Virus record (IMG/VR): IMGVR_UViG_3300030330_001568
DNA length: 64,000 nt
Strand: one strand, 5' to 3'
DNA from: an uncultured virus (IMG/VR IMGVR_UViG_3300030330_001568)
Taxonomy: Duplodnaviria > Heunggongvirae > Uroviricota > Caudoviricetes > Crassvirales
The notes under the pieces are model-generated. The model searched no databases, was not told where the DNA came from, and saw nothing but the letters and a program-made list of their open reading frames with translations. Made by a program: the position numbers and the translations under genes. Positions 2,359 through 42,122 of the stretch are shown here, piece by piece. Position 1 is the first letter of the stretch. Every line of letters starts with the position of its first letter.

Positions 2359-2359
2359 A

Positions 2360-6814: not shown

Positions 6815-6900
6815 TATAGATAGGTGGGTATTACACTGGTTCTATTGTGGACTAAAATATAGGTCGTCATCCACAATAGTAATGCTCACCTTTATCTATA
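6815..6900. terminator. Long imperfect hairpin filling the gap between the convergent ung and RNAP genes; possible bidirectional terminator or structured RNA
   Basis: TATAGATA/TATCTATA, GGTGGGTATTAC/GTAATGCTCACC (2 G:U pairs on +), TATTGTGGA/TCCACAATA. Confidence 0.55.
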
Positions 6901-24371: not shown

Positions 24372-26882
24372 TTATATATATTTTAAGTAGTCGTCAACAT
24401 TAGTTTTTAATCTATCAGAGAATACAAATCCTGCGTCCAATGCTTGATTAGTTTGTGAACCAAAACCGGTGTTTCCTCCTTTTACTCCTATACCTCCCGA
24501 AGGTGCATCATGAGTATCTCCTACAAATTTAAACATATTTGGTCCAATTTTACGAACTTCTCCGTTTTCATCTGTTTGTGGAGGATTATTTGCAGGTCCC
24601 ATCATTAGTTCTCCTCCTTCTACAGTGTAATCAGGTGCTTTCATCATTCCACCATCTTCTGCGTAGTAACTATAATTATCTACGCCCTCAGTTGGATATT
24701 GACTTAACACACTAGCTGCATTAACTTGATCTTGTGCAGACATTGCTGCTAATCTATTATTTAATGCTTCTTCTTTTTGTCTTTTTAGTTTTGCTAATAG
24801 TTTTTTATGTTGGCTTTTTCCTAGTAATCCACCGCCTATAGCTCCTAACACTCCTCCAACTATTCCTCCTATAGGACCTAGTGCCATTCCCATAGATGCT
24901 CCTTGTCCTGCCATGCCTATAGCTCCAGCTGTTCCTGCTTCACCTTCTGATATTTCTGTAGGATCAGATGGAAGACTAGCATTATATAAACCAGCTCCTA
25001 AAGATCCTAGTTGTGCGAATGGTATTTTGCTCATAGCTTTACCGAATCCGGTATTTGCACCCATAAAGCCCATTCCTTTTTCTGCTTCGTCTGCTGTTCC
25101 TTGAGTTGTTCCACCAGGTGCCATTTTTTTCTTAGGTAGTGTTTTTATTTTACCGTTGTGTGTTCTTGCAAATCTAGCTTTATCTGTTTCCATACTTGGT
25201 ATAAGAGTACCACTATATTTTTTACCTCCAAACATCCAACTTACACTTCCTCCTTTACCCATACCTACTCCTTGTAAAGGTGTTGTTTGCATTTCTGTAC
25301 TTGCACTAAGCACAGGTTGTATACCTTCACCTGTTAATGTACTAACAGCTGTTGGTCTAAACCTTCCTGTGTCTAACATTTCTTGATATCTAGCTAGTTC
25401 GTTATTAAGGTTTTGCATATCACCTGTATATCTAGTTACTCTATATCCGCTTTCAGGATCAGCAAAATTATAATCTACACCTCTTGAAGATATTCCTTTT
25501 CTAAAACTTCCTCCCATATTTTCCATTATTATAGGTCTTCCTTGATCGTCATATTGTCCAGAGAATATTTGTGTGTGTTGTCCTCCTTCAGGTCCACCAG
25601 TGCTGTAGTTACTTACAATTCTATCTCCGGGTTGTAAGTCTTCGTATGACTGTGGATTAATAACTTCAAATCCCATAGCTGCAGGATCTTGTTCTATCAT
25701 AGAATTCATCATAGCATTACCTGCAAAAATAGGCAGTTTACTACCTGCACTATATACACGATCGCTTCCTGGCATTTGAACATCTCCTGGTAAAGTAGCT
25801 CCTGCTTCTCTCATCATTCCACAGCCGTAGCTTGTACAACCATAAGAATTTTTATTTTGCTCTGCTAAAGAGTTTAAATAACCATAAGTATTACCTATAA
25901 CTTGAGTTGAGTCTATACTTTTTTGATTTTTTGGATCTGCATTTCTTTCTTCTGCTGTAGCATAGTTAGGTAGTTGACCTTGTATATTTTGTTGAAATTG
26001 TGCTAGTCTTTCTTGTTCTGCAGCTCTGGCTTCATTTATTCTTTCCATCTCTGCAGCTATTTGTTCTCTAGACATAAGCATACCTCCACCTTGTAATTCA
26101 TTTTTATTATACTTTTCAAAGTATACTTCTAAATCCGGCTTACCTTTTTTCTTAGAAGGAAACCTTATTATGTTTTTTATATCAAAGTTCTGTGGTAAAT
26201 AAGGTATTGTACCTGTAAAGTTTCCATCTTCATCAAGTCTTTTAGCTACTCTGGCTTTTAGTACTTCATCCGATACCATAAATTCTTTGTTAGGACCATA
26301 TCCAAAGAATGCTGTATCAGGAAGTTTAATATTATACTGTTCAGCAAACTGATCATAGGTAGGTAGATCAGGATAAAGTTTTTCTAGTTTTTTATTATTA
26401 AGTATACTACCTCCTCCTTGATAAGATGTATTTGCTTTTAATGATTTATTAACACCTTTAGATACTGCTTTCGCAGTTGTTGGACTAATTCCTACTGCTT
26501 TTAATGGTCTTACAAAAGGTAATACACTTGCAAAATTCATTGCTGATTTACCTGCATCTCCGTCCATAAGAGACTCCGTACCTTTTATTAGAGCACTTGG
26601 TACATTAACCATACTTGCAGCAAAGTCCATAGGCTGACTTGGAACTTGACCTGCTTCTACACCTTTATCAAAGTTATAAGGTATTTCACCTTGCTGTAAA
26701 AATGTTCTTGCTGATTGAAAAGGATATTTAACAATAGAACGAACATCACTAACCAAGTTATCTAAAAAGCCAGGAGCTTGTGAGATAGTAGCAGGGGTAG
26801 GTGGAGGCGGCATCATAGGAGGTAACTGCGCCCCATTTTGATACTTTTTCGGATTATATGTATATTCTTTTTTTATTTTCAT
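24372..26882 (-). CDS. Putative cargo protein with NlpC/P60-CHAP-like domain and glycine-zipper membrane segment
   Basis: YGCTSYGC ... LQPGDRIV ... GQHTQIF; GMALGPIGGIVGGVLGAIGGGLLG; C-terminal VEGGE..GDTHD..GG..VFSDRL. Confidence 0.6.
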   Translation of the reverse strand: MKIKKEYTYNPKKYQNGAQLPPMMPPPPTPATISQAPGFLDNLVSDVRSIVKYPFQSARTFLQQGEIPYNFDKGVEAGQVPSQPMDFAASMVNVPSALIKGTESLMDGDAGKSAMNFASVLPFVRPLKAVGISPTTAKAVSKGVNKSLKANTSYQGGGSILNNKKLEKLYPDLPTYDQFAEQYNIKLPDTAFFGYGPNKEFMVSDEVLKARVAKRLDEDGNFTGTIPYLPQNFDIKNIIRFPSKKKGKPDLEVYFEKYNKNELQGGGMLMSREQIAAEMERINEARAAEQERLAQFQQNIQGQLPNYATAEERNADPKNQKSIDSTQVIGNTYGYLNSLAEQNKNSYGCTSYGCGMMREAGATLPGDVQMPGSDRVYSAGSKLPIFAGNAMMNSMIEQDPAAMGFEVINPQSYEDLQPGDRIVSNYSTGGPEGGQHTQIFSGQYDDQGRPIIMENMGGSFRKGISSRGVDYNFADPESGYRVTRYTGDMQNLNNELARYQEMLDTGRFRPTAVSTLTGEGIQPVLSASTEMQTTPLQGVGMGKGGSVSWMFGGKKYSGTLIPSMETDKARFARTHNGKIKTLPKKKMAPGGTTQGTADEAEKGMGFMGANTGFGKAMSKIPFAQLGSLGAGLYNASLPSDPTEISEGEAGTAGAIGMAGQGASMGMALGPIGGIVGGVLGAIGGGLLGKSQHKKLLAKLKRQKEEALNNRLAAMSAQDQVNAASVLSQYPTEGVDNYSYYAEDGGMMKAPDYTVEGGELMMGPANNPPQTDENGEVRKIGPNMFKFVGDTHDAPSGGIGVKGGNTGFGSQTNQALDAGFVFSDRLKTNVDDYLKYI

Positions 26883-27349
26883 TATTTACCATTCTTGATA
26901 GTTTGAAACTTTTCTGCCCCACGACTTCCAAAGTAGGCTACGTAGACGGTTACAAGAAGTGTCTGCAATAAATCTACCCAACCAGCTGATACTTGAAAGC
27001 TCCATTCAAAACTGTCTAGTAATATTAATAATACCATAGATATAGTTAAGAAGATCAAACTTATAGGTCTAGTATTCTTACTTAACCACGAGTCTGATTT
27101 CATATCGCTTTCCCATCGTTTTGAGACTTCTTGCATCTCAACCATATCTTGTTCTAAAAGCTTTAGTGCTTTTTCCTTGTCTTCTGGAGGGAGTGTAGCA
27201 TCCGGTTCTTTCTTTATAAGATTTTTTACTAAGCCTAATACACCTGCGTCAGGTAGTACATCTCCTGCTATACCTAATATACCAGGAGCAGCCTTAGATA
27301 AGAATGCTCCTACCTTAGTTTCAGAAAACTTCTTTTTTGGTTTTCCCAT
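26882..27349 (-). CDS. Putative holin (3TM / gene-transfer-agent-like family)
   Basis: RWESDMKSDSWLSKNTRP, then two hydrophobic helices and AYFGSRGAEK. Confidence 0.7.
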   Translation of the reverse strand: MGKPKKKFSETKVGAFLSKAAPGILGIAGDVLPDAGVLGLVKNLIKKEPDATLPPEDKEKALKLLEQDMVEMQEVSKRWESDMKSDSWLSKNTRPISLIFLTISMVLLILLDSFEWSFQVSAGWVDLLQTLLVTVYVAYFGSRGAEKFQTIKNGK

Positions 27350-27457: not shown

Positions 27458-27742
27458 TTAACATTTCCACCTACGTCTAGCTTGTCTTATTCTAGAGTTC
27501 GGATTATTTCTAGTTTTTGCACTAGACCTCTTAAGTTGTCCTAAGCTTCTAGCACAGTATGACTTTCGTCTTTTAGCAGCTTTGCTACCTTTTTTAACTT
27601 TACCGGTAACAGCTGTCTTAAGTTTAGATCCAGGGTTAGCACGCCTGTAAGCTCTAACTCCTTTACGAGTCATGCCTGCTCCAGACTTAGTTTTACGGTA
27701 GTTACCGCCTTTGCCTGTAGTACGTCTAATCGCCTTTGCCAT
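27458..27742 (-). CDS. Small basic protein (94 aa)
   Basis: GMTRKGVRAYRRANPGSKLKTAVT...AKRRKSYCARS...RQARRRWKC, a pattern I recall from aquatic phages. Confidence 0.8.
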   Translation of the reverse strand: MAKAIRRTTGKGGNYRKTKSGAGMTRKGVRAYRRANPGSKLKTAVTGKVKKGSKAAKRRKSYCARSLGQLKRSSAKTRNNPNSRIRQARRRWKC

Positions 27743-27744
27743 AA

Positions 27745-27912
27745 TTATTTCTTTTTACGTTTCTTAGCAGTCTTCTTAGCTCTCCTAAAGTTTGCAGCTG
27801 TAGGAGCTCCTTTAGATCCTGGCTTTCTCATTTTCTCACCAGAGCCTGCTTTGATACGTCTTCTTTTAGCGTGGATATTTGCGTATAATCCTTTTTTCTT
27901 TTTTTTTGCCAT
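27745..27912 (-). CDS. 55-aa basic protein MAKKKKKGLYANIHAKRRRIKAGSGEKMRKPGSKGAPTAANFRRAKKTAKKRKKK (not in ORF track)
   Basis: Hand-translated; 2-5 nt spacing to neighbours. Confidence 0.8.
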   Translation of the reverse strand: MAKKKKKGLYANIHAKRRRIKAGSGEKMRKPGSKGAPTAANFRRAKKTAKKRKKK

Positions 27913-27917
27913 AATAA

Positions 27918-28043
27918 TTACATTTTACATCCGTCCTTACGGAATTTTTTTAAACTTAACATACCACCATATGCGTAAGAATAAGTTTTTCTCTTTCTCT
28001 TACGTTTTGTAGATCCACCTTTTTTCATGCATCCACATCCCAT
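27918..28043 (-). CDS. 41-aa basic protein MGCGCMKKGGSTKRKRKRKTYSYAYGGMLSLKKFRKDGCKM (not in ORF track)
   Basis: Hand-translated; tight packing; two phi-x-x-GG motifs. Confidence 0.7.
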   Translation of the reverse strand: MGCGCMKKGGSTKRKRKRKTYSYAYGGMLSLKKFRKDGCKM

Positions 28044-28045
28044 GG

Positions 28046-28198
28046 TTATACTTTTCTTTTTTTGATGTTCATAGCAGCTAACATTCCGCCACCCATCTTA
28101 CTTATTTTTTTATCTAACATGCCACCTATTGCATACATGCCTGGATTTGCTGGTCTCATTTTACCACCGCCTCCATATTTCATTTTTTTATTTCCCAT
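28046..28198 (-). CDS. 50-aa Met/Gly/Lys-rich protein MGNKKMKYGGGGKMRPANPGMYAIGGMLDKKISKMGGGMLAAMNIKKRKV (not in ORF track)
   Basis: Hand-translated; tight packing; GG motifs. Confidence 0.7.
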   Translation of the reverse strand: MGNKKMKYGGGGKMRPANPGMYAIGGMLDKKISKMGGGMLAAMNIKKRKV

Positions 28199-28224
28199 TT
28201 TGAAAATATTATATAGTTACACAA

Positions 28225-28398
28225 TTATTTACCAACTTTCTTCATCGCCATTTTATGCGATTTACCGAACGTTGCGCCTTTTTTCATAGCAGTAACCATA
28301 CTTCTTATATGCTTTACTGTATGATGTTTAGAATGCCTTTTAAGAGCATTCTGTTGTCTTTTATTTAGACTATCTACGTTTACGCCTTTTACTTTCAT
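28225..28398 (-). CDS. 57-aa His/Lys-rich protein (…LKRHSKHHTVKHIRSM…GKSHKMAMKKVGK) (not in ORF track)
   Basis: Hand-translated ATG 28398 to TAA 28225; five His residues. Confidence 0.75.
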   Translation of the reverse strand: MKVKGVNVDSLNKRQQNALKRHSKHHTVKHIRSMVTAMKKGATFGKSHKMAMKKVGK

Positions 28399-28399
28399 A

Positions 28400-28564
28400 T
28401 TAATGCCATCTAAGTGTTATTGCAATTATAATAAAATAAATATTTAGTTCATACCAATCTTCGTCTGCATACTCAGGTATTCTATCATCTTTACTAAAAT
28501 AAGTAAATCCTAATAAAGCACCGTCTCCTAGAAGACGAATATGAATTAAACTAAATAAATTCAT
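28400..28564 (-). CDS. 54-aa hydrophobic small protein (MNLFSLIHIRLLGDG…YELNIYFIIIAITLRWH) (not in ORF track)
   Basis: Start overlaps the upstream stop (TAATG); stop lies 1 nt before the next ATG. Confidence 0.7.
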   Translation of the reverse strand: MNLFSLIHIRLLGDGALLGFTYFSKDDRIPEYADEDWYELNIYFIIIAITLRWH

Positions 28565-28782
28565 TATTTTTTTCTTTTTCTTCCTTTTCTTTTTTTACCT
28601 TTTACTGCTGCTCCTACATCACCAAGTTGATTACCAACTTCTTTCATAGCACTACCTACATCAGATAGTTCTTGACCTACATTTTTAGCACGTCTTTTAA
28701 CTTCTTTTACTGTTGCTATGGCTTTCTCGTCAACTGTGGTTTTGCTCCATAACTTAGTCCACCATCTTTTTAATATATTCAT
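28564..28782 (-). CDS. Small protein with amphipathic helix and basic tail (72 aa)
   Basis: Internal repeat VG..L.DVG.A.K; KRKGRKRKK tail. Confidence 0.7.
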   Translation of the reverse strand: MNILKRWWTKLWSKTTVDEKAIATVKEVKRRAKNVGQELSDVGSAMKEVGNQLGDVGAAVKGKKRKGRKRKK

Positions 28783-28786
28783 ATCT

Positions 28787-29197
28787 TTAAAATTGTCCCG
28801 CTTGTGCGGCTTGGTCTACTGCTTCTTGTATATCAGCTAAATCTGCAGGTAGCAGTAGATCTAAACCTGCCTTGAAAGCTGTTTCTTTTATACCGTCATA
28901 AAATATAATAACGGTAGGTGCCATACGCACCTTGTATTTCTTTTTCGCATTAGGTGCTTTTGATATATCTATTCTATAGTATAAAGCATTTTCTACTTTA
29001 TCCCATTCTGCAAAGCAGTTTTCTTTATTAAATTCTGCCCAGAACTCTACTACTATAGGTTGTAGGTTATCATCTCCAAATGCGGATCTTTGATTTATTG
29101 TTTCTTCAAAGTTGCTATCATCAATCCAATACTCTTCTGGTACATCGCTTTGTGCAAAGGTATAGAAGCTTATTAGTAATAGTATTATGTGTTTCAT
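28787..29197 (-). CDS. Secreted thioredoxin-fold protein lacking CxxC
   Basis: Signal peptide MKHIILLLISFYTFA|Q; IVVEFWAEFNKENC, YRIDI, KKYKVRMAPTVIIFYDG match Trx topology. Confidence 0.7.
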   Translation of the reverse strand: MKHIILLLISFYTFAQSDVPEEYWIDDSNFEETINQRSAFGDDNLQPIVVEFWAEFNKENCFAEWDKVENALYYRIDISKAPNAKKKYKVRMAPTVIIFYDGIKETAFKAGLDLLLPADLADIQEAVDQAAQAGQF

Positions 29198-29514
29198 CTT
29201 TGTTTCTGTATTTCGTATAGCCTTTCGTCTATCTTATCTAATTTTTCTTTTATATCTTCAACATCATCTTGTGTATCTAATATTGTAGATCTAATTAATT
29301 CGTCTTTTAAATCATACTCAGTTCTAGATATTTCTGGTTTAGGCAACTCTTTAGCTTCAGCTATATCTGCCTGTAGTGTAAACCACATACCAGCTAATGC
29401 CACAATACCAGCTATTAAGCCTCCTATTGTTTTAAGTGATATAGCAAAATCTGATTTACCATCTCCATCTATATCTATACCCATAGATGTATTTTCGTCT
29501 AATTGTCGTGCCAT
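29194..29514 (-). CDS. Single-TM protein with C-terminal coiled coil
   Basis: DIDGDGKSD loop; TM segment IGGLIAGIVALAGMWFTL; heptads DDVEDIKEKLDKIDERLYE. Confidence 0.65.
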   Translation of the reverse strand: MARQLDENTSMGIDIDGDGKSDFAISLKTIGGLIAGIVALAGMWFTLQADIAEAKELPKPEISRTEYDLKDELIRSTILDTQDDVEDIKEKLDKIDERLYEIQKQR

Positions 29515-29525
29515 AACTTTCTCAT

Positions 29526-29582
29526 TTAATCACCACATAAACCACAGCCTATGCAGAACGGACATATAAAATTTGTTTTCAT
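29526..29582 (-). CDS. 18-aa Cys-rich micropeptide MKTNFICPFCIGCGLCGD (not in ORF track)
   Basis: ATG 1 nt after the upstream stop (TAA-T-ATG); fills most of the 69-nt gap; CxxCxxCxxC. Confidence 0.65.
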   Translation of the reverse strand: MKTNFICPFCIGCGLCGD

Positions 29583-29583
29583 A

Positions 29584-30849
29584 TTATCTAAATGTATAAT
29601 TAATTCCAAAGGTTGAGTTAAAAAATTCAGTATCCCACATTTTAGTATATTCTCCTTCTACAAATACCCCAAGCGTCTTACTAATTTTCCATCCCATGTT
29701 TAGACCCCCTTGGTAGTCTAACCATTGTTCAAATTCGTTTTCATCTCCTGTTACAGGATCGTACTTCCATCCATTTCTATATCCATAGTTTAGTTCATCC
29801 CACTCTCTATCATTAAATATATATTTATGATAAGGAAGTAGTACACTAGCGTATGCATGTATCCAGAAACTAGACTTATAATGATAGAAATCCATACCTA
29901 CAATAGGTGATACAACATGATAAGGTTCTACAGTTTCCCAAAACTCTCTGTTATATCTATTCATGAGTTTTCTAAATACAGTATTTCTAAACTGTAAATC
30001 TGTATATGCAACTATGTTTCCCTGATCATCTCTCCATAACCAGTCTCCCATTTGTTCAACTGTACCATCATTATTGTAGACAACAGATGAGTAGTATACG
30101 TCTTCGTATCCGTATTGATATCCAAGACTGTACCAAGGATTTGCAGGGTATTGATTACCAAACTCATCTGTTTCCATTTGGTTTAACCAAAGCTCTATTG
30201 GATTAAATCCATAACCACGTTGATGAGTACGGTAGATTGCGCCAGCTGAAATAGAAGCTTTGCTACCTAGTGGTAGTCTAAATCTAAGCTCTGCTGATTT
30301 ATATTCGAAGTCTCTTGATCCTATATTTCTTTGCTCTAGCTTAGCAATATGATATTTACCAGTGTGTCTAATAAAGAATCTAGAGTTGTTCCAAACCATT
30401 CCTCTATGTCTTTCCTTTTCATAGTGTAGTAAGTATTCTAAACCGTCAACTGCAGAAGTAGGAGCAGATAATGCATTTTGTTTTTCTCTTTTTACATTAC
30501 CAGTCCAGAAGTTATCCGGCTTTCTCTCGTATCCAAAACGACCAAGCTTACGGATTCCAAATCCATATCTATAATCAAAAGGATGTTTGATAGTTACATC
30601 TATTACTTCTGGTACATCATATAAACTTCCACCTTCTGGAGGTCTAACAAAAAAAGACTCTTGCTCTACTTGAGCATTGTTAATATCTCCAGCTACGTAA
30701 ATAGTTCCGTATTTAAAGATCTGTTCGTATATAGATTTGAAAATGTTCTTCTTTTCTTTTTCTACTTGACCGTAGGTTACAAAAGAACATAATAAGAATA
30801 TTAAGGTAAAGATGTAAGTACCTCTTTTATAAGTATAAGAATCTCTCAT
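29584..30849 (-). CDS. Putative outer-membrane beta-barrel protein
   Basis: Signal peptide ...IFLLCSFVTYG|Q; aromatic-rich alternating strands; C-terminal GVFVEGEY...STFGINYTFR beta-signal-like end. Confidence 0.7.
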   Translation of the reverse strand: MRDSYTYKRGTYIFTLIFLLCSFVTYGQVEKEKKNIFKSIYEQIFKYGTIYVAGDINNAQVEQESFFVRPPEGGSLYDVPEVIDVTIKHPFDYRYGFGIRKLGRFGYERKPDNFWTGNVKREKQNALSAPTSAVDGLEYLLHYEKERHRGMVWNNSRFFIRHTGKYHIAKLEQRNIGSRDFEYKSAELRFRLPLGSKASISAGAIYRTHQRGYGFNPIELWLNQMETDEFGNQYPANPWYSLGYQYGYEDVYYSSVVYNNDGTVEQMGDWLWRDDQGNIVAYTDLQFRNTVFRKLMNRYNREFWETVEPYHVVSPIVGMDFYHYKSSFWIHAYASVLLPYHKYIFNDREWDELNYGYRNGWKYDPVTGDENEFEQWLDYQGGLNMGWKISKTLGVFVEGEYTKMWDTEFFNSTFGINYTFR

Positions 30850-30866
30850 TTTTATTTAGTGTTTAT

Positions 30867-30969
30867 TATCAGAGAGAGTCAGCGAGCTGCTGTTACTATA
30901 TAATTGGAGATTCTATACTAAATTTTGGTATTCTTTGGAACTTTATTACTACGCTGACTATCTTTGATA
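30867..30969. promoter_or_regulatory. Structured non-coding element upstream of the beta-barrel gene
   Basis: 18-nt inverted arms 30867-30884 / 30952-30969 (16/18 complementary) with an inner ATACTAAA/TTTGGTAT stem; no ATG on the minus strand in this gap. Confidence 0.55.
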
Positions 30970-30982
30970 TCTAAAATTAATA

Positions 30983-31768
30983 TTATCTGGCAGATAATCT
31001 CATATTCGCACTAACATCATACAAATATAAACTATTTTGGCTTACATTGTCAAATGAAAAACGAGAAATTATGAACTTATCTACAAACCTCTTTTTAGTA
31101 AACCAGTCTTTATTAACATTTAAGTTACTAGTTATTAGTTCTAAATTACTGTCTATGAAGGGATTGTCAGGATTAATAACAATATCTCGGAACTTATTAA
31201 CAGACCAAGTGCCTTCTGTATTAAACATATTAAAATTACGTATATCTTCTTGGTTTGTTGAGGTTTTCCTCACTAAATCAAGATTACCAGAACACTGATA
31301 CGAGTTATATATTAGTAAATCAGTAATAGTACTATTATATAAGTGTGCTCCGTTTGATGCTGTAGTCTTAGATATCCAGTTGACCGTTGCATACATTTTA
31401 CTACGATCCGGCTGTTCATTAAATACTGCATCTACAAAACTTGCATATGTTTGTTGTGTACCTCCTACTTCATAAAACCTTGCATATTTAGTAGGTATAT
31501 TGTGTTTATATATTTCATCGTAATTCATTGAATATAATACATTACGAGTGTTAGTCATTAGATAAGGGGTGTAATCATGATAAGAAATCCAAGCTTGTGT
31601 ATCTAACGAAAAAGATAATGTCCAACTATTATCTGTAAAAAAGGTAGCTAGCTGTGCTGCAGTTATAAGCTGTAGTACTTTTTTACCATTAACTGTTGCA
31701 ACAACATAGTACTGTCCTTGATTAAGAACTAGTTGACCGTCTGATAATGTATTTATATTAGTTGGCAT
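30983..31768 (-). CDS. C-terminal part of the tail muzzle/stabilisation protein encoded as a separate gene
   Basis: SWTLSFSLDTQAWISYHDYTP, VFNEQP..SK, EGTW..N.FRD, KRFVDKFII.R resemble the C-terminus of crAss-like tail stabilisation proteins. Confidence 0.65.
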   Translation of the reverse strand: MPTNINTLSDGQLVLNQGQYYVVATVNGKKVLQLITAAQLATFFTDNSWTLSFSLDTQAWISYHDYTPYLMTNTRNVLYSMNYDEIYKHNIPTKYARFYEVGGTQQTYASFVDAVFNEQPDRSKMYATVNWISKTTASNGAHLYNSTITDLLIYNSYQCSGNLDLVRKTSTNQEDIRNFNMFNTEGTWSVNKFRDIVINPDNPFIDSNLELITSNLNVNKDWFTKKRFVDKFIISRFSFDNVSQNSLYLYDVSANMRLSAR

Positions 31769-31770
31769 AA

Positions 31771-34700
31771 TTAAAATGTAAATCCGAGATTTTCCATCGC
31801 GGTTTTTATTAAGTTTTTATAATATCCTGTATTAGGTGCACCTGAACCTCCATCATTATTAGGAACTACATCAAATGTAAATCCTACATTACTTACACCG
31901 CTTAGTCCTCCAGCATTGTATACTCCTGTTCCATCTTTTACTGCTGTTAAATACTGCTTAAATGCTAAGTTTTCTCCAGTTGTAGAAGTAGCTACTTGGA
32001 ATACGTTAGCTCTATAGAAAGCGGCATCGCTTGAATTTAAGTTTGTTATAGTTGTTTTTAGATTGCCGATATCTGTGTCATGCTGACTAGTAGTAGAAGT
32101 AGTATTAAAGTTTGAAGCCGGATGATAAACACCATTTGCTTCATCTTGAAATGCAAACATAATTACTTTTGAAGCAGATGGATACGGATCACTAGCTCCT
32201 GTACCAAAGCCTGCACCTCCATTATTTAAACAGTGCCAAGTTCTTTCTACAGGGTTAGTACTTAAATCTGAATAGTCTCTTATTCTTACTTTAGAATCAT
32301 ATGCATCTTTTCCATTAGTTGTTGTATTTGTATTTCCTTGAGCTTCTGTTTGACCTGTAGCATAAAAGTCTTGTAATAGTTTTCTAAGTCCGTGTTGATT
32401 ACTATAAGGAGCATTCTTCATAGCATTTAAATCATCTTCTGTAGTACCCATGGATCCTGAATCATCAAAGAAAATATCTATGTAAGTATTTTCATCTACT
32501 GATAAAACTCCTAAGTCTACAGTTGCAGTAGTGCTACAAGAAGCTTTAGATACGCTATATGAGAATGATCCAGTTGTTGCTGCAGTACTATTGTGTGTAA
32601 ACTTAACAGAATATGTTCCTGGTTGACTTTGTCCATTAGTACCAGAAGTTGACTTAGTAAGAGTACTACCTACAACTAAAGAAGCATTGTTGTTATTATT
32701 ATCAGTAAGTGTTCCTATTACATTATTGCTGCTATCTACTGGTAATCCTGTTATCTTGTATATCTCATCAACTCCTGAGACAATAGATCCATAGCTATCA
32801 TTGTTAGATAATACTATATCTGTACTACCACCATTAGTAATACCTGCAGCACTATCATTAGCTAATACAGGACAATCTAATACTTTTACTGTAACAGCAG
32901 ATCCTATAATATCAGCTGCATTTTGTATTGTTATTTGATTATTATTATCATCTAATCCTCCATCTTTAGTAACTGCAGTAGCAGTAGCTATAATTGTTTC
33001 ATCCGGTGTAAGTTCAATAACTTGATCAATAGTTAAAGTTGCTCCTTCTATTTCAGCCTCTATTGCTCCTGTAGGTATAACAATTGTAGTTCCAGGTATT
33101 CCTGCTTGATCATAAGTACCAGAGTATGCAACAGTAACTGTTAGATCTCCGTCTTGTGGTTCGCTAACAACTGCTTTTAAGACAACCTTTTCACCTTCAA
33201 ACTTATTAACTCTAGATCCTTTTCTACCAACCCACTCTAGATAAAGTGTAGGCTTACTAGGACACAACACAGGATCTAAGCTTGGAGCTACATAGCCTTC
33301 ATGAGTGCTAACGTTAGGAACAGTTTCTATTAGCTCTCCGTATTGATCTAATACTTGTAAGTTTTGGTAAATTACAAAACCAGTTGGATTACCATCACTG
33401 TCTAACTGACAAGCAGGATCTACTGCTAAGAAGGTTGTAGGAACCTGTACATCAGTTACTAGTGGTACATTTAGTTTTAGATCTTTTTTAGTTAGTAATA
33501 TTCTATTATTTAATTCGTCAAATGCAGTAACATATCCAGAGCCTCCTAAATTAAAAGGAGTGTCTGTACTAGGAGTTGTAGTGTTTTGGAAAGATAGATT
33601 ATCTCTAAACCACTGTCTTAACCCAGTAGAAGATATTTCTTGTAATTTATTATTTACTAAAAATACTTTGCCTTGTTCTTCATCCACAAAGCTATATCCA
33701 GCCTTGCTTATAAGAATAGAAGAAAGATGCTGTGTACCTGCATATCCGTTTTCTGATGTTATAAGCTCTGTAGGAGCAAACTGAAATATATCTCCAGTAC
33801 CTAAAGTTGCTTGAGCTGTGTTAGTAGCTATAACATCTTTAGTTGTAGTTTTAAATATAGAATGTTCGTGATGTATAATTAACTCTTTTCCTATTCCTTC
33901 TAAGTTAACTAGGTGACCACGGTTTTTTACCATTTCATAAAAGTCATTTGATCTAAACTCTTTTAAGCTCATTGTTTTATCTTCTTGAGCAAAAGGCTGA
34001 CTTCTTATAATTCTATAAGGAAACTTACCTAAAAATAAGTCTCTGTTATCATAAGCAGTTAATACATTATAATTATTTAATGAACTATAATCTTGATTAT
34101 ATGTAATACTATTTGTATTATCTATATCTGTACTTCTTCCTCTATAGTTATGGAGTGCTTGTTTCTTTTGATCTAGTCTACTATTTATTGTAGTAGTTTC
34201 TCCCGAATTTGTTAAAGATCCTACACCACATCTAGGATAATAACTATCTTTAAAAACTTCAGTTGCAGCATGTCGTAAGGCTACGTTAGCTGCAGTATAT
34301 ACAGGGAAGAAGAATATATTTTTAACTCCGTGTAGTTTATTAGAAGAAGACCATATTTCTGCATCTTTACCTTTAGAGTAGTATGCAGGTCCTGTTAGTC
34401 TTACACCGTACATTCCTGTAAATGTATCTCCACCGTATATAGGTCCAGTATCTAAGGTTATACTTTGATTTATTTCTATTTCTAATTTTTGATTATCTGT
34501 AAGTTTAAAGTAGTTTTTAGTTGCTATAAACTTTTGATCATAAAAGCTATTATATAAATTAGTCTTATATGATTTTAAATCAACTAGGTTATATTTAGGT
34601 CCTTGTATTTGGTCTACTATTTGACTACCAGTTTCTGTTTCAAAGTTAGATTTTATTTTTCTCCACCCCATAGGTTCAGTGTATGTAGTAATATTAGTAT

Positions 34701-37700
34701 TACTATCAACACTACTACTTAAGAATCCTGTATGATGATTTATTTCACTCCAGTTATTTTCATTATCATAATGTACAATTGTTGCATGTAAACACTCTTC
34801 AGAAAAAGTATTGTTTACAGTAACACTCTTTTTAGTAACAACTGTATCTCCAGGAACATACCCTATATCTTGCAGCTGTCTTAATTTATAGTAATGATTA
34901 GATGCTAAACTAAAACTTGGGTTTCTTTGTGCTGTTGTAGAAGTACCATATCTATTCCATATTTGATTATATCCTGCTTGTAGTATAGTATCTACAGTAT
35001 TATTTTTTCCTGTAGTTGTAGAATTCAAAAAGAATGGATCACCTCCACCTGCTGCTGTTGCTGTATCAGCAGTATCTTTACCTGCATCTAATTGATTAGC
35101 GTTTGTAATAGTATTTAATCTAACATCCGTATACTCACAAGATCCTAACTCAGCTACTCTTTTTATATAAGCTCCTTGTACATTTGGTTTAAAGTTTAAC
35201 ACATTAAATCCATGAAATCTAAATGATGACGGATTTATTTTATGTTGTTTACTAAAGTCATTACCATCCATTGTAAGACCCTCTTGACTCCAGTCTGAAG
35301 ATGTATACCCAGACCCTGTATCTCCATATTCATTAGTACTTGTTAATCTTAGATTGCCCATAGGTATCAAGTGACCTGCGTATGATCCTTCTTCATCTGG
35401 GAATAAAGCATGAGGAGCTCCATGAAATGCAATTGACTGATCAAACGTTTGTGTATTTTTTGCATCTCTTTCTGCATAGAAGAATTGATACCCTTGTATA
35501 TCTTTTGCTAACTCTCTAGGTATTTCTATATTATTAAATCTAATACCTAGTACAGCTGTATACATAGAGTACGGACTATATGTAGGTTCTGGGAATGTAT
35601 ATTTATAAGTTAAGAACTGTAAATCATATTCATAAGCTATTCTAGTAGGTGTTGTAGAATTAGTATGAGATACAGAACCAAGTCCTGTAACTGTAGTCTC
35701 ATGATAAAACTGTAGTATATCACCTGTATTTAAAGTAATAGCAACAAAGACATCAGGTCTAAATACATTTTCTACATCTTCTGATAAAAAGTTTCCTCCT
35801 AGTGTAGAAGTAGCTACTTTATCTCCAGATGCTTTTAGTGTTCCTTGGTTCGTCTCTGTATTTTTAAATACGTCTGTTCTTTCCCATGTTGTTTCATCGT
35901 CAGGATCCCCTCTTCTAAGTTTTCTTATACCTGATATTACAATCTGTCTTGGTTTCTTTTCGTCTCCAGATGTGTACGAGCTTTCTACTAAACATCCAAA
36001 CTTACCACTGATATATAAGGTATGAGGACCTACTGCAGTATAAGTATAATTATTATTACTAAAGAATCCATCAGGAGTATTACCTGTTTTAGTTGTAGGA
36101 AATTGAGAATTACCAGTTAACGGAGCCTGAGCAACCGCATTAGCCAAACCAGAAGGACCTGTGTGAAAAGACTCAAAAGTTACTGGAGCAAGAGTACTAG
36201 TAGAAACAGAAGTAGTTGCGTTAGCAAAATTAGTTTGTTTTACTTGTCCGTTACCTACAGCTCCATAAGGTTGAGATGTTATAAAACTAGGCTGTGTATA
36301 ATTACCTAAAGAAGCAGAAAAGTTATACTCAACGTCTTTTCTAATTGTTTTTATACCATTACCATTAAGAGTAGAATCACTTACTTGATTACTAGTACTA
36401 GACCACCAGTTAGGTATAACTGTAAAATTACCTACACCTGTATCACCTGATCCTTGTATTATATCTAAATGTTGTAGATTCCATTCATAATAATTATAAG
36501 GTCCTCTTGCTCTAGGGCACTTTGCATTTTTTCCTTCTCCCCATCTACGTGCGTACGCTTGTGTTTTTGGTGTTCCTGGACCACATAGCTTACCATTTCT
36601 ACAGTGTTTGTGATACCAATGACCCATAAAAACATTAGATGCGTAATACTGAGCATCCCCTCCATTTATATATTCATAAGACTGCTCTGTTCTCATTGGG
36701 AGTTCAAAGATATCTCTTTCGAATCCACATCCATCTTTATTCATTTTAGTTCCTTCATACTCATAATCAAGTCCATCTGCTAATCTATCAGTATTTCTAG
36801 GAGTTAACATGTTAGGATACAAATCTTTTATAGCATTAGTACCATCAACAATATTTTGAGGAGGTATATTACTATGTTGCCAGTCTCCCCTTCTTTGATC
36901 TCCTGATATTTCTATTACAGGATCGGTAAGATAATGAGAGAATGCTCCTCCTGTATCTGTAAAATCTCTAGGATCTAGAGACTGAGCTAGGAAGTAATAT
37001 CCCGGAGCAGCTTGTCCATTACCAGAAGCAATATATAAATACAAGTGATGATAAACTCTTTGTCTATTATATAAGTGATTGTGAGCAGTACTTTTACTTA
37101 AGTCATTACTTCCTTGACTCATGTATTCTTCTTCGTCACCTACAATAGAAGGTCTAAGATCCATCATACAACTATCCATGTATGCAATAACAACTAAATG
37201 TCCAACTCCTGTTCCACCTGGAGGTATACTATTACCATCAGCATCTTGTTGAATAAAAGTTGTATTCAATCCATTCATTGTTTCGTATCCAGGAAACTTA
37301 TGATGTCTAACAGGAGTACCTGCACTAGATCCAAAAGTGGTAGGATCTCCAGGATATAACTCTGTTGCATTAGACCAGTAACCCATTTTACCATCTATCC
37401 TAGCAGTTTCTCTTGTATGAAACCATTTTATATTTTTGCTAATACCTAAATCATGTTGAAATATATCTTGATATTGTATTCTATCAGTGCTTGTAATTGT
37501 CCCTTCTGTTACATCTCCTAGTACAATATCTTTTAGTTTAATATCTTCATCTACAGTAACAGGTGATAAATAATTACCATTAGCATCTTCTAACGACACT
37601 GTAACCTTTTCTTTATCTCTACCCGGTATGTGGTATGCACCAGACCAAGTACCATCATTATATAAGAATGCAATGTAAAAAGCATAAACTTCATCAGGTC

Positions 37701-39225
37701 TAAACCCACGTTTATTATATACCATTAACTCATCTTTGTAAGATCCTCTTACAGAGTTAACATCTATATAATCTCTTGTCCATGTTGATTGTATATTCAT
37801 GGCAAAAGGTTGATAGTTAAAATCTTCGTGAGATGTTAGGTTACCTAAAAATAGTTTACTGTCAAAGTATGTAATTGTTTTAGCAGTAGAGTAAGTATCA
37901 TTACCTATACTTATATCCTCTAGAAGAAGATCTATACTTGTTTCTCTTCCAGAATATGTAATAGTAAGTCCTTCATCTGTATCTTCAGAGTCAGGTGTAT
38001 TTACAGTAGTAGCTCCACTAGATGGTATATCATCATCTGATCCATCTAAAAGGTTTAATACAGAAGCTATTTCTATTTTTTGTACTAACTCACTTGTTGT
38101 ATTACCTCCTATTTTTTTATAAACTGCAAAAAGTAAATACTTATATCTTAAGTCAACATTAGTTACTTTAAATCGTATAGACTTAGAGCTTGTAGTATTT
38201 GGTTCTGCTCCATCATACATTGATACTAACTCAAAGTTATTTTGCATATCTTTTCTGTATGATCCTGTTAACTCTAAAGTAGAATTAGTAACTATTATAG
38301 GACCATCTAAAGGAGTAAAATTAGTTCTACTACCATCTTCTAATTCATAAGCAAAAGACAGAAAATAAGCACCTGTTTTTAAAGCTCCTCCGTTATCTAC
38401 TACTTCTTTATATACAACTACAGGTCTTTTATACTCAGGGAATATGTACATTAATACTATTTCCTTTTCATCTATTATTTTTTTATTAGCATCAACTGAA
38501 AAAGGTAGTTTATCTATATTAAGTATTTTAGGTTGTGTTTTATCATCTGTAAAAGCAATTATAATTTCTTTATTAAAATTTAAAACATAAATACCTTTCA
38601 TAAAAGAATCAGATCTAAACTTAAGTGAATCTGATTTTAATATAGTAGTATATACTCCATCTTTTGACAGTCTTCCTATTTCTGACTCATATGCTATAGT
38701 AGTTACAGTGCTTTGTTGTATAGGAGTTATTGTAAGATTAGATGCAACATTATCACTATCAGTAGAAGGCGGAATACTAAAAGTAAAAGTTAAGTCAGCA
38801 TTAGTACTATATTGAATGAACGAGCCTCCGTTTATAGTAACATCATGACTTGCAATAGTAGAGTCCTCAGCTATTGTCTCTTGCATATTTATTACTTGTT
38901 CCTGTGCTGTACCATTACTATTTATATATGCAACAGTAAGAGTACCCGACATAGTATTAGGAAAAGTTATTGTTACTTTAGCTAAAGCAGTACTAGTTGT
39001 TTGTGTAGCATCATCATCATCTCTAGAAAATAGTATGATTTCATCATTAATAATAGGAATAGATCCTACTATCTTTTTATTTAAATCATGCACTTTGTCA
39101 AAACCCAGTTCATTTACAAGAGCTCCTTGTACTTTGTTAATGATCATATTCCTAGCGTTTGGATATGTACCCAACAGCTGATCTATAGGATCAGTATCTT
39201 TATAAAGCCCTTTACTTAGTTTCAT
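31771..39225 (-). CDS. Tail muzzle/stabilisation protein (N-terminal part) with large insertions and C-terminal vWA domain
   Basis: KGLYKDTDP..Q..GTYPNARN, RGFRPDEVYAFYIAF, PVRHHKFP, YGGDTF, GYAGTQH, FDELNNRILLTKKD; MIDAS-like FFDDSGSM near the end; follows ring and IHF genes. Confidence 0.75.
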   Translation of the reverse strand: MKLSKGLYKDTDPIDQLLGTYPNARNMIINKVQGALVNELGFDKVHDLNKKIVGSIPIINDEIILFSRDDDDATQTTSTALAKVTITFPNTMSGTLTVAYINSNGTAQEQVINMQETIAEDSTIASHDVTINGGSFIQYSTNADLTFTFSIPPSTDSDNVASNLTITPIQQSTVTTIAYESEIGRLSKDGVYTTILKSDSLKFRSDSFMKGIYVLNFNKEIIIAFTDDKTQPKILNIDKLPFSVDANKKIIDEKEIVLMYIFPEYKRPVVVYKEVVDNGGALKTGAYFLSFAYELEDGSRTNFTPLDGPIIVTNSTLELTGSYRKDMQNNFELVSMYDGAEPNTTSSKSIRFKVTNVDLRYKYLLFAVYKKIGGNTTSELVQKIEIASVLNLLDGSDDDIPSSGATTVNTPDSEDTDEGLTITYSGRETSIDLLLEDISIGNDTYSTAKTITYFDSKLFLGNLTSHEDFNYQPFAMNIQSTWTRDYIDVNSVRGSYKDELMVYNKRGFRPDEVYAFYIAFLYNDGTWSGAYHIPGRDKEKVTVSLEDANGNYLSPVTVDEDIKLKDIVLGDVTEGTITSTDRIQYQDIFQHDLGISKNIKWFHTRETARIDGKMGYWSNATELYPGDPTTFGSSAGTPVRHHKFPGYETMNGLNTTFIQQDADGNSIPPGGTGVGHLVVIAYMDSCMMDLRPSIVGDEEEYMSQGSNDLSKSTAHNHLYNRQRVYHHLYLYIASGNGQAAPGYYFLAQSLDPRDFTDTGGAFSHYLTDPVIEISGDQRRGDWQHSNIPPQNIVDGTNAIKDLYPNMLTPRNTDRLADGLDYEYEGTKMNKDGCGFERDIFELPMRTEQSYEYINGGDAQYYASNVFMGHWYHKHCRNGKLCGPGTPKTQAYARRWGEGKNAKCPRARGPYNYYEWNLQHLDIIQGSGDTGVGNFTVIPNWWSSTSNQVSDSTLNGNGIKTIRKDVEYNFSASLGNYTQPSFITSQPYGAVGNGQVKQTNFANATTSVSTSTLAPVTFESFHTGPSGLANAVAQAPLTGNSQFPTTKTGNTPDGFFSNNNYTYTAVGPHTLYISGKFGCLVESSYTSGDEKKPRQIVISGIRKLRRGDPDDETTWERTDVFKNTETNQGTLKASGDKVATSTLGGNFLSEDVENVFRPDVFVAITLNTGDILQFYHETTVTGLGSVSHTNSTTPTRIAYEYDLQFLTYKYTFPEPTYSPYSMYTAVLGIRFNNIEIPRELAKDIQGYQFFYAERDAKNTQTFDQSIAFHGAPHALFPDEEGSYAGHLIPMGNLRLTSTNEYGDTGSGYTSSDWSQEGLTMDGNDFSKQHKINPSSFRFHGFNVLNFKPNVQGAYIKRVAELGSCEYTDVRLNTITNANQLDAGKDTADTATAAGGGDPFFLNSTTTGKNNTVDTILQAGYNQIWNRYGTSTTAQRNPSFSLASNHYYKLRQLQDIGYVPGDTVVTKKSVTVNNTFSEECLHATIVHYDNENNWSEINHHTGFLSSSVDSNTNITTYTEPMGWRKIKSNFETETGSQIVDQIQGPKYNLVDLKSYKTNLYNSFYDQKFIATKNYFKLTDNQKLEIEINQSITLDTGPIYGGDTFTGMYGVRLTGPAYYSKGKDAEIWSSSNKLHGVKNIFFFPVYTAANVALRHAATEVFKDSYYPRCGVGSLTNSGETTTINSRLDQKKQALHNYRGRSTDIDNTNSITYNQDYSSLNNYNVLTAYDNRDLFLGKFPYRIIRSQPFAQEDKTMSLKEFRSNDFYEMVKNRGHLVNLEGIGKELIIHHEHSIFKTTTKDVIATNTAQATLGTGDIFQFAPTELITSENGYAGTQHLSSILISKAGYSFVDEEQGKVFLVNNKLQEISSTGLRQWFRDNLSFQNTTTPSTDTPFNLGGSGYVTAFDELNNRILLTKKDLKLNVPLVTDVQVPTTFLAVDPACQLDSDGNPTGFVIYQNLQVLDQYGELIETVPNVSTHEGYVAPSLDPVLCPSKPTLYLEWVGRKGSRVNKFEGEKVVLKAVVSEPQDGDLTVTVAYSGTYDQAGIPGTTIVIPTGAIEAEIEGATLTIDQVIELTPDETIIATATAVTKDGGLDDNNNQITIQNAADIIGSAVTVKVLDCPVLANDSAAGITNGGSTDIVLSNNDSYGSIVSGVDEIYKITGLPVDSSNNVIGTLTDNNNNNASLVVGSTLTKSTSGTNGQSQPGTYSVKFTHNSTAATTGSFSYSVSKASCSTTATVDLGVLSVDENTYIDIFFDDSGSMGTTEDDLNAMKNAPYSNQHGLRKLLQDFYATGQTEAQGNTNTTTNGKDAYDSKVRIRDYSDLSTNPVERTWHCLNNGGAGFGTGASDPYPSASKVIMFAFQDEANGVYHPASNFNTTSTTSQHDTDIGNLKTTITNLNSSDAAFYRANVFQVATSTTGENLAFKQYLTAVKDGTGVYNAGGLSGVSNVGFTFDVVPNNDGGSGAPNTGYYKNLIKTAMENLGFTF

Positions 39226-41495: not shown

Positions 41496-42122
41496 TCATG
41501 CACTCTTTTTTTTATTTACTTTAATATCTTTTGATTCTATTAACGTGTAAGTAAAACTATTACTCCACACAGTTCTAGCAGTATTAGCTAACTCCATAAG
41601 CTTTTTAAAGTCATCTGCAGCTGCTATTACCTGACAACCTGCAGACCACTTATCTATTTGTTTAGACTTTTTACCTGCATGTTTAGTTGCCCTGTGTATA
41701 TTTATTCCGAATAATCCAATTTCTACATTGTTTTCATTCTTATCATATACACCATCTTTGTTCTTATCTCTATAGACATGCACCGGTTTCATCTGTCTAA
41801 GTGCTTCATATTTTCCTTGGTGCAAACCTATTTTATGAGATCCTCTATACTGACCAGGTTTAAGTATTGCTACTCCTGATGCTTTAAGTATATTTTCTAC
41901 CCAATGGGTACCAGGATCTGTTGTACAATCAAACTCATGATACTGCCACTTGCGTCCTATTTTATAAGAAACAGTGATAGTATCATCAAAAGCATTAGTT
42001 ACTTTATTTTTAGTATCGGAGTTTCTAATACCTACAATATTTAAATTATAGTCTCCAGTATTAAACCATTTATAACCTTTACTTTTTACTGCTTGTTCTA
42101 GTATAGAATTATTATATTTCAT
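41496..42122 (-). CDS. Putative endolysin, L,D-transpeptidase (YkuD)-like catalytic domain
   Basis: LNIVGIRN, TTDPG, PGQY, GINIHRA...WSAGCQV (His...SxGC). Confidence 0.7.
   Translation of the reverse strand: MKYNNSILEQAVKSKGYKWFNTGDYNLNIVGIRNSDTKNKVTNAFDDTITVSYKIGRKWQYHEFDCTTDPGTHWVENILKASGVAILKPGQYRGSHKIGLHQGKYEALRQMKPVHVYRDKNKDGVYDKNENNVEIGLFGINIHRATKHAGKKSKQIDKWSAGCQVIAAADDFKKLMELANTARTVWSNSFTYTLIESKDIKVNKKKSA

Follow-up and report, generated by a model that had tools for sequence, protein, structure and literature searches.

A putative envelope module of beta-barrel, transmembrane and CxxC-less thioredoxin-fold proteins, linked to lysis genes in crAss-like and other metagenomic phages

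Introduction

The closest described counterparts of the genes reported here are the two-component spanins (lambda Rz/Rz1), in which an inner-membrane protein with an N-terminal transmembrane (TM) segment and a helical tail is paired with an outer-membrane-targeted partner, the genes adjoining or overlapping near those for holin and endolysin, and about 96% of which have a periplasmic Cys for intermolecular disulfides (Kongari et al., 2018, PMC6139136; this and the other papers are cited for the accessible parts of their texts). In such pairs, the subunits bind each other and are needed to disrupt the outer membrane. In spanin-less phages, a third lysis component for the outermost layer can be of another kind, such as the phiKT gp28 disruptin, a single cationic peptide (bioRxiv 10.1101/515445), or the mycobacteriophage LysB, a soluble esterase (PMC5707550), both encoded in the lysis cassette. 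For phages of Bacteroidetes, the accessible parts of the surveys report only unimolecular spanins, and few of these (PMC12596118, PMC8776804), and therefore the outer-membrane step is largely unexplained for these hosts. Here, we describe a 64,000-nucleotide stretch of DNA from an uncultured virus (IMG/VR record IMGVR_UViG_3300030330_001568; the whole stretch is hereafter called the window), in which genes for a predicted outer-membrane beta-barrel, a small TM protein and an exported thioredoxin-fold protein form a candidate module for this step.

The window, low in GC (about 33%), comes from a crAss-like (Crassvirales-type) phage genome. A preliminary description made from the sequence had noted four tightly packed minus-strand genes, inserted between muzzle and holin/cargo genes, and all four open reading frames (ORFs) were found: the barrel protein (421 aa, 29584-30849), a Cys4 micropeptide (18 aa from its ATG, 29526-29582; listed also as a 27-aa form with a TTG start from 29609), the TM protein (106 aa, 29194-29514) and the thioredoxin-fold protein (136 aa, 28787-29197). 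A single base separates the barrel stop codon from the micropeptide ATG, and the TM-protein and thioredoxin-fold genes overlap by 4 nt (ATGA). The placement was borne out as well, with muzzle-type genes (phrog_15100) upstream and a holin-like gene (phrog_3427) 1.4 kb downstream, within the late operon.

The barrel, TM-protein and thioredoxin-fold genes (hereafter the trio) resemble the Rz/Rz1 spanins in having a TM protein with an N-terminal membrane segment and helical tail, encoded by genes that adjoin or overlap next to an outer-membrane-targeted partner (PMC6139136); an endolysin- or holin-like gene is near in 67 of 86 related loci, and in the window only the holin-like gene at 1.4 kb. Unlike these spanins, the trio has a 421-aa barrel with a signal peptidase I (SPase I) signal, an obligatory thioredoxin-fold protein and a short tail, and it bears no sequence relation to any spanin family. 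The disruptin and LysB share with it the proposed service as third lysis component, and differ from it, as far as the accessible texts describe them, in having no barrel, membrane anchor or thioredoxin fold.

Linkage and distribution of the three genes

The order barrel, TM protein, thioredoxin-fold protein was kept in 26/26 barrel-anchored viral contigs from IMG/VR. A scan anchored on the TM protein, from which the best 80 of 465 stretches were taken, gave, after deduplication and together with the barrel-anchored set, 86 distinct loci, which were chosen by similarity to the window proteins, include close lineages and are not independent events. Across these loci a barrel was present in 76 and a thioredoxin fold in 84, the genes abutting or overlapping. 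Among the 80, several loci that lack a member were cut by contig ends (L054 and L071, with no upstream DNA; L095 and L096, with no downstream DNA), two encoded the TM protein and the thioredoxin fold with no barrel within 2.5 kb (L043 and L092), and L093, L097, L111 and L112 belong to a lipoprotein-encoding group considered below. Judged from these sequences, barrel, TM protein and thioredoxin fold are a fixed, phage-only trio. Its constant core is TM protein plus thioredoxin fold; the outer-membrane part varies, being the barrel in most loci and a lipoprotein in 4 contigs, and a few loci showed none.

The co-occurrence in other genomes that the preliminary description had presumed is thus found for these three genes. 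Its remark that no system of such composition has been described also agrees with our searches: neither the literature (including PMC12596118, PMC10136315, PMC8776804 and PMC6139136, in the accessible parts of their texts) gave an account of such a module, nor did Pfam, PHROG functions, NCBIfam or PADLOC hold a family for the barrel or the TM protein, and PADLOC found nothing for the trio. All trio relatives are metagenomic, many of them marine, on contigs of up to about 210 kb, and blastn of 28500-31100 against GenBank phages gave no match.

The flanking genes differ among loci. In one set the trio is preceded by a giant protein of about 1900-1985 aa, the place taken in the window by the muzzle genes, and in another by genes for an exonuclease, DnaB, nrdB and nrdA. 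Between the sets, the barrel is 56%, the TM protein 65% and the thioredoxin fold 49% identical, versus 43.5% for the large subunit of ribonucleotide reductase (RNR), which is consistent with a trio that moves as a unit between unlike contexts.

Predicted properties of the three proteins

An AlphaFold2 (AF2) model of the barrel protein, built from a 50-sequence alignment, consists mostly of strands, about 14 by count on the model, at middling confidence (pLDDT 69.5, pTM 0.63). Its fold matches in VIA-align were KdgM (Z 14.3, root-mean-square deviation 3.8, 163 aligned), EstA (13.9), NalP (12.7), NanC (12.5), LpxR (Z 12.2) and Tsx (Z 11.6), so that the fold is common to KdgM/NanC porins, autotransporter beta-domains, LpxR and Tsx (163-212 aligned); Foldseek returned porins and autotransporters with E-values of 5e-7 to 1e-5 and low TM-scores. 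Each strand has a nearly invariant polar face (conservation 0.88-1.00) and another that is more hydrophobic and less conserved (0.57-0.79), a pattern that, on the model, would mark a membrane barrel whose lumen is functional. Like 12- to 14-stranded outer-membrane barrels, the phage protein combines alternating strand faces with an aromatic residue at the C-terminus (F[RK] in 48/50); a closed barrel and a signal peptide complete its likeness to outer-membrane beta-barrel proteins, on this middling-confidence model. Unlike known barrels, it falls in no curated barrel sequence family (porin, autotransporter, OMPLA, LpxR or others), carries a 100-residue surface insert and a conserved 32-residue periplasmic-side turn (102-133; conservation 0.88, modelled at low confidence), and occurs on viral contigs only. 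The long surface loops (210-309 and 338-377) are its least conserved parts (0.71-0.72).

No Pfam, NCBIfam or PHROG family was found for the barrel, and 18 distant full-length relatives were likewise without a Pfam or NCBIfam match. Among 90%-identity clusters, 2206 relatives were found at E<=0.001, none with a Pfam family, and a profile search of 1.84 billion representatives gave 335 barrel matches at E<=0.001, many of them fragments; in the ESM Atlas, 30/30 nearest clusters were viral hypothetical proteins. A cellular origin was considered and rejected: the sole species-representative match was a 12-kb contig in a metagenome-assembled genome labelled Woesearchaeota, which we read as a phage contig in the bin because its gene order is phage-like (RNR, trio, 2-TM proteins, phrog_3000). 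The outer-membrane enzymes OMPLA, PagL and LpxR have lipid-facing active sites. In the model, the strand with the invariant residues H142 and E144 turns them to its polar face, towards the lumen, which may speak against an enzyme of this kind.

A specific outer-membrane channel, taking up nucleosides or oligosaccharides to feed replication with the thioredoxin fold as periplasmic binder, would agree with the matches to the specific channels KdgM, NanC and Tsx, with the polar and nearly invariant lumen and with the RNR genes that adjoin the trio in 19/25 non-identical barrel-anchored loci. We consider such a role very unlikely, given that a common fold is no proof of function, that no transporter partner is encoded, that the trio lies in the late operon of crAss-like phages, and that in some phages the core occurs without the barrel, within pure lysis cassettes lacking RNR.

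The thioredoxin-fold protein matched Pfam PF00085 above its cut-off (25.4 versus 23.5 bits), and a profile search of the PDB returned thioredoxins with E-values down to 1.9e-8; its model (pLDDT 83.7) was similar to thioredoxins in Foldseek (TM about 0.7). The fold is therefore present without its redox site: CxxC occurs in 0/31 relatives, and the active-site stretch reads F56-N57-x-x-N60-[C/A], with C in 20 and A in 11 of the 31 and with F56, N57 and N60 invariant. The cis-Pro loop is also invariant (R91 M92 P94 T95), the C-terminal residue is always aromatic (F in 24/31, Y in 7/31), and 2476 relatives were found at E<=0.001 among 90%-identity clusters. Redox-inactive uses of the thioredoxin fold include host thioredoxin in T7 DNA polymerase and in f1 assembly, and CnoX/YbbN. 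With these adaptor and chaperone proteins the phage protein would share a fold kept for binding rather than redox chemistry; unlike them, it is phage-encoded, predicted to be exported to the periplasm and altogether devoid of CxxC.

The TM protein has one hydrophobic segment, with a 19-residue hydropathy maximum of 1.95 (family median 1.89, 29 sequences), followed by an acidic C-terminal tail in which one heptad register has 9/13 hydrophobic a/d positions by a crude test. It thus shows, in tests of this crude kind, the single N-terminal TM segment and helical or coiled-coil domain of i-spanins, and its architecture appears to be i-spanin-like and bitopic. Twenty-four residues are invariant, relatives number 6056 at E<=0.001 among 90%-identity clusters, and weak matches were obtained to phrog_1009 and phrog_6664, both PHROGs without a function. 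In the window lineage and in L004 and L005, a 12-residue insertion with a calcium-loop-like D-x-D-x-D-G motif precedes the TM segment (29430-29480, minus strand; residues about 12-26); most relatives are without it, and it gives a weak FG-GAP match.

Export signals were uniform among the relatives. A hydrophobic run, then a small residue and Gln, marks the signal peptides of all 50 barrels and of all 31 thioredoxin-fold proteins; in the window barrel the signal is of SPase I type and ends G-Q (Cys21 is not conserved). Gln after signal peptide cleavage is the Q-rule of Bacteroidetes (PMC5837995, PMC10653852, accessible parts); the fit of the trio to it suggests a Bacteroidota host. The preliminary description had recognized the 421-aa protein as a beta-barrel, the 136-aa protein as a secreted, CxxC-less thioredoxin and the Q-rule in both signal peptides, and had supposed that the products are aimed at the host envelope rather than at the virion; the AF2 model with its KdgM, EstA and NalP matches, the PF00085 score, the export signals and the membrane anchor all point the same way. 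Since the trio lies between muzzle and cargo genes in the window, ordinary virion or tail assembly proteins might come to mind. This is close to untenable in view of the Gln-marked Sec signal peptides (50/50 and 31/31), the transmembrane barrel fold and the replication or lysis contexts of the trio in other phages.

Lysis-gene context

Within 1.5 kb of the trio, an M15 or amidase endolysin was encoded in 50 of the 86 loci, any endolysin-like protein in 62, a holin-like protein in 40, and either kind in 67. Endolysins above Pfam cut-offs included Peptidase_M15_3 (51.5, 50.4 and 35.0 bits) and PG_binding_1 with Amidase_2. Four orders recurred: barrel, TM protein, thioredoxin fold and M15 peptidase; 2-TM protein, barrel, TM protein, thioredoxin fold, amidase and Phage_holin_4_1; amidase, 2-TM protein, barrel, TM protein and thioredoxin fold; and RNR, barrel, TM protein, thioredoxin fold, two 2-TM proteins and an endolysin-like protein. 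Homologues of the holin-like phrog_3427 come after the trio or its endolysin in L089, L104, L109, L110 and the lipoprotein group. By gene order, the trio appears to be anchored to lysis genes while its flanks vary.

In four distinct contigs (L093/L114, L097/L115, L111 and L116), overlapping genes encode, in order, a 60-aa 2-TM protein, the TM protein, a 104-aa exported thioredoxin fold (hhalign probability of 94.4% against the family), an 87-aa lipoprotein, an M15 endolysin and a holin-like protein; L112 has the same cassette minus the lipoprotein. By analogy with i-spanin/o-spanin pairs, the 87-aa lipoprotein probably stands in for the barrel, and the core with its variable outer-membrane-targeted partner seems to be placed where spanins sit in classical cassettes. 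In the window itself, a relaxed lipoprotein pattern that finds 3/3 positive controls gave no true candidate on the minus strand, in agreement with the preliminary description, which had seen no lipoprotein spanin pair.

Other lipoprotein and membrane-protein genes were observed in these cassettes. A 146-aa Pro- and Tyr-rich putative lipoprotein is encoded beside the endolysin or inserted within the trio (L004 9064-9504; L016, L037, L056, L086-L088), and in L004 (8056-8610) the gene between thioredoxin fold and endolysin encodes a membrane protein of 184 aa that matches PAP2 phosphatases below the threshold (25.3 versus 27.2 bits). A TM-protein paralogue, phrog_20984, is often found between barrel and TM protein, or paired in either order with a 196-aa lipoprotein that has an acidic mature N-terminus (C-E-K-D-E-D), as in L024 (8578-9478) and also in L061, L064 and L068; the two resemble a further, separate spanin-like pair within these cassettes. 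Weak phrog_20984 relatives occur in pelagiphages, two genes before an M15 peptidase (HTVC027P) and near terminase and lysozyme (HTVC121P).

Outer-membrane proteins encoded by tail or lysis genes have precedents in lambda lom and bor and in T5 llp, and the large surface loops of the barrel (210-309, 338-377), together with its position directly after a muzzle/tail gene in the crAss-like group, could indicate an envelope moron for superinfection exclusion or receptor masking, in which the loops hide or alter a receptor against other phages or against the phage's own progeny on infected cells and debris. We find this rather improbable: conservation is lowest in the surface loops (0.71-0.72, versus 0.88-1.00 on the lumen faces), in the RNR-context group the trio has lost its association with tail genes but kept that with lysis genes, no PADLOC family was matched, and within a compact lysis cassette a lipoprotein replaces the barrel. 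Among the roles that the preliminary description had listed as possible, the lysis-related one is backed by the 67/86 loci near an endolysin- or holin-like gene, and superinfection exclusion and metal or nutrient uptake found no support in gene context.

The same lysis-cassette context could also be that of lysis-timing control, with TM protein and exported thioredoxin acting like T4 T/RI, as a pair of holin and antiholin or as a sensor pair, and the barrel as outer-membrane input, so as to delay or trigger lysis. The constant TM protein plus thioredoxin core, present also without a barrel (L043, L092, L112), would suit this, as would the one TM segment and periplasmic domain, which is the layout of class III holins, and the RIIA/RIIB-like proteins encoded in the window. 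Nevertheless, we regard timing control as unlikely: the cassettes already contain other holin candidates (2-TM proteins, Phage_holin_4_1, phrog_3427), neither the TM protein nor the thioredoxin fold matched a holin or antiholin family in Pfam or PHROG, T4-type holin T and antiholin RI included, and the near-constant linkage of an outer-membrane protein would be left unexplained.

Proposed role in host lysis

Tentatively, and at a little under an even chance, we favour the reading that the trio is a phage-only envelope module in host lysis, most likely for a spanin-like outer-membrane step. Upon late expression, the barrel would be inserted in the outer membrane, and the 106-aa protein would project its helical tail into the periplasm from an inner-membrane anchor, while the redox-dead thioredoxin fold would lie between the two as an adaptor or holdase, by means of its retained peptide-binding groove. 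Once the wall had been removed by holin and endolysin, the assembly would break or open the outer membrane, much like the spanins of Proteobacteria phages. The higher conservation of lumen and periplasmic turn than of surface loops, together with the lipoprotein variant, argues that the module acts from within the envelope. A complex prediction with barrel residues 28-421, TM-protein tail residues 46-106 and thioredoxin residues 17-136 as partner (score 0.00, mark 0.32) speaks neither for nor against binding.

A more ambitious form of this proposal is possible, though we hold it with greater doubt: a three-part envelope-spanning lysis machine of marine Bacteroidota phages, in which the barrel would replace the spanin lipoprotein, the redox-dead thioredoxin would serve as link to an inner-membrane coiled-coil protein and a translated Cys4 metal- or cluster-binding micropeptide would tune some lineages, the whole being ocean-wide, with thousands of sequence clusters, and absent from all cultured phages.

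Several observations weigh against a function in lysis of this spanin-like kind. In 19 of the 86 loci, the 1.5-kb surroundings of the trio contain no lysis-type gene; downstream DNA amounts to less than 250 nt in six of them, and seven carry RNR genes there on the other strand, the latter being in themselves unfavourable. In the window, the only lysis-type neighbour is the holin-like gene 1.4 kb away, behind seven small ORFs, and the Pfam and PHROG scans identified no endolysin in the window and none beside the trio. Lipoproteins that may be real o-spanins are also encoded in 23/86 loci. The lipobox of o-spanins is absent from the barrel and found only in the relatives L093/L114, L097/L115, L111 and L116; the periplasmic Cys is missing as well, with Cys in 0/29 TM proteins and 49/50 mature barrels Cys-free. 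The periplasmic tail of the TM protein, of about 58 residues, is short to span the periplasm alone, and the charge bias around its segment is slight (K/R 2.5 before versus 1.7 after), so that an N-in, C-out (class II) topology, as in i-spanins, is weakly indicated. The barrel, for its part, offers no evident way to break or fuse membranes, and genes beside lysis cassettes can be morons, as lambda bor illustrates. Finally, tblastn with the barrel, TM protein and thioredoxin fold against 50,697 GenBank phage records found nothing, that is, no cultured carrier. By definition the trio is not a spanin, because its partner is not a lipoprotein, it has no periplasmic Cys and a third protein is needed.

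Taken with its abundance in marine viromes, its conservation and its tie to endolysin and holin genes, the trio is nevertheless a concrete candidate for the outer-membrane lysis step. If the proposal were true, the known repertoire would grow by a lysis component of a new kind, a novel use for the thioredoxin fold and an outer-membrane barrel made by a phage, and lysis genes would be better annotated in a large share of the phages of the ocean and of the crAss-like group.

Variable additions to the module

The Cys4 micropeptide of 18 aa (MKTNFICPFCIGCGLCGD) lies at the junction of the barrel and TM-protein genes. Related Cys4 micro-ORFs of 11-18 codons occupy the same junction in L042 (MKQCPLCIGCSICWF), L038 (MCELCQGHCGLC) and L041 (MNTCSICGGYCGLC), and in L032, a divergent lineage with a barrel of 35% identity, MCPFCIGCGLCL is encoded about 1 kb downstream of the barrel. 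The Cys spacing in these five lineages is C-x2-C-x2/3-C-x2-C, which we take to resemble ferredoxin-type CxxCxxC motifs. A further pattern match in L030 was set aside as a chance match in unrelated high-GC DNA.

Between the window and L032, 9/10 core codons differ, all synonymously; 8 of the codons are fixed by the search pattern, and the independent evidence from this comparison comes from the last two codons, the start, the stop and the common context only. Both population variants within the micropeptide ORF (29556 and 29535) are synonymous. One RNA-library contig runs from the end of the barrel gene across the micro-ORF into the beginning of the TM-protein gene, which indicates presence only and may derive from DNA; contigs of this library cover parts of the stretch, the uncovered parts being uninformative. 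The micropeptide was found in 5 lineages among about 110 loci, and the junction is just 5-23 nt long in 33/71 loci and holds other inserted genes elsewhere. By these comparisons, it is a real mini-gene, but an optional one that most loci lack.

Ahead of the barrel gene lies a spacer of 133 nt (30850-30982) with a folding energy of -24.1 kcal/mol (z -3.73; 0/200 shuffles were equally stable), which forms a hairpin at 30862-30975 on the minus strand; Rfam gave no match for it. Eight other lineages have no counterpart (z -0.73 to +1.05), and the hairpin, stable as it is, appears to be specific to the window lineage. Thus, of the module outlined in the preliminary description, the outer-membrane, periplasmic and membrane-anchored parts stand; the Cys4 gene and the stable hairpin are indeed present, and neither holds as a component, given their distribution.

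The motif TGATAATAAA occurs once only in the window, at 30862-30871 in the 3' arm of the hairpin, and again about 15-30 nt before the barrel start codon in L004-L007, L009 and L013; it may be a promoter or leader element. A scan for sigma-70 promoters and terminators gave 26 promoter-like sites against 22.8 expected, and nothing for the leader. A second conserved leader, CAAATTT.CAG ... TATATTAT.ATATAAACCA, was seen about 60-100 nt upstream of the barrel in L008, L010, L011 and L015-L017, a subgroup with RNR downstream, and in the RNR-upstream group a TTTG-containing leader motif precedes the barrel.

Other genes of the window

The muzzle-type genes upstream of the trio, both on the minus strand, encode a 2484-aa protein (31771-39225) and a 261-aa muzzle-C-like protein (30983-31768), with matches to phrog_15100 (E 3.7e-35 and 1.8e-16) and, at E 0.013 only, to crAss_MUZ_C. 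The holin-like protein, the nearest lysis-type gene of the window (26882-27349, minus strand), matches phrog_3427 with E 2.3e-20. Directly downstream of the trio, a 72-aa Lys-rich protein (28564-28782, minus strand) has tblastn matches in L008, L010-L016 and others; it is conserved in the crAss-like subgroup and may form part of one late/lysis block with the trio. The minus strand further encodes a portal (phrog_6547), a major head protein (phrog_11589), tail ring proteins (PF24228, a crAss ring protein family, at 171.7 bits, and PF25702), a 2546-aa fibre protein and large cargo-type proteins.

The interval from the trio to the holin-like gene holds a row of genes (27458-28398, minus strand) for five very small, extremely basic proteins of 41-94 aa, one of which matches DUF6321 (E 1.5e-11); DUF6321 relatives recur near the trio elsewhere. 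On the plus strand, opposite to the trio, positions 55-3490 encode a RIIA-like protein (767 aa, phrog_612, E 4e-71) and a RIIB-like protein (387 aa). An 836-aa protein (24372-26882, minus strand), with a weak match to a tail-associated lysin (phrog_1047, E 6e-5) and a Gly-rich hydrophobic stretch, may be an ejected cargo protein that cuts the cell wall. A 4630-aa ORF (6896-20788, minus strand) had no PHROG match at E<=1e-5, and its C-terminal part weakly matches the giant proteins encoded ahead of the barrel elsewhere. Among the tail genes, a 208-aa protein (41496-42122, minus strand) belongs to phrog_3000, with a partial match to an endolysin PHROG, and its homologues of 65-67% identity (e.g., L025 6698-7312) are encoded in RNR-context phages directly after the trio and two 2-TM proteins.

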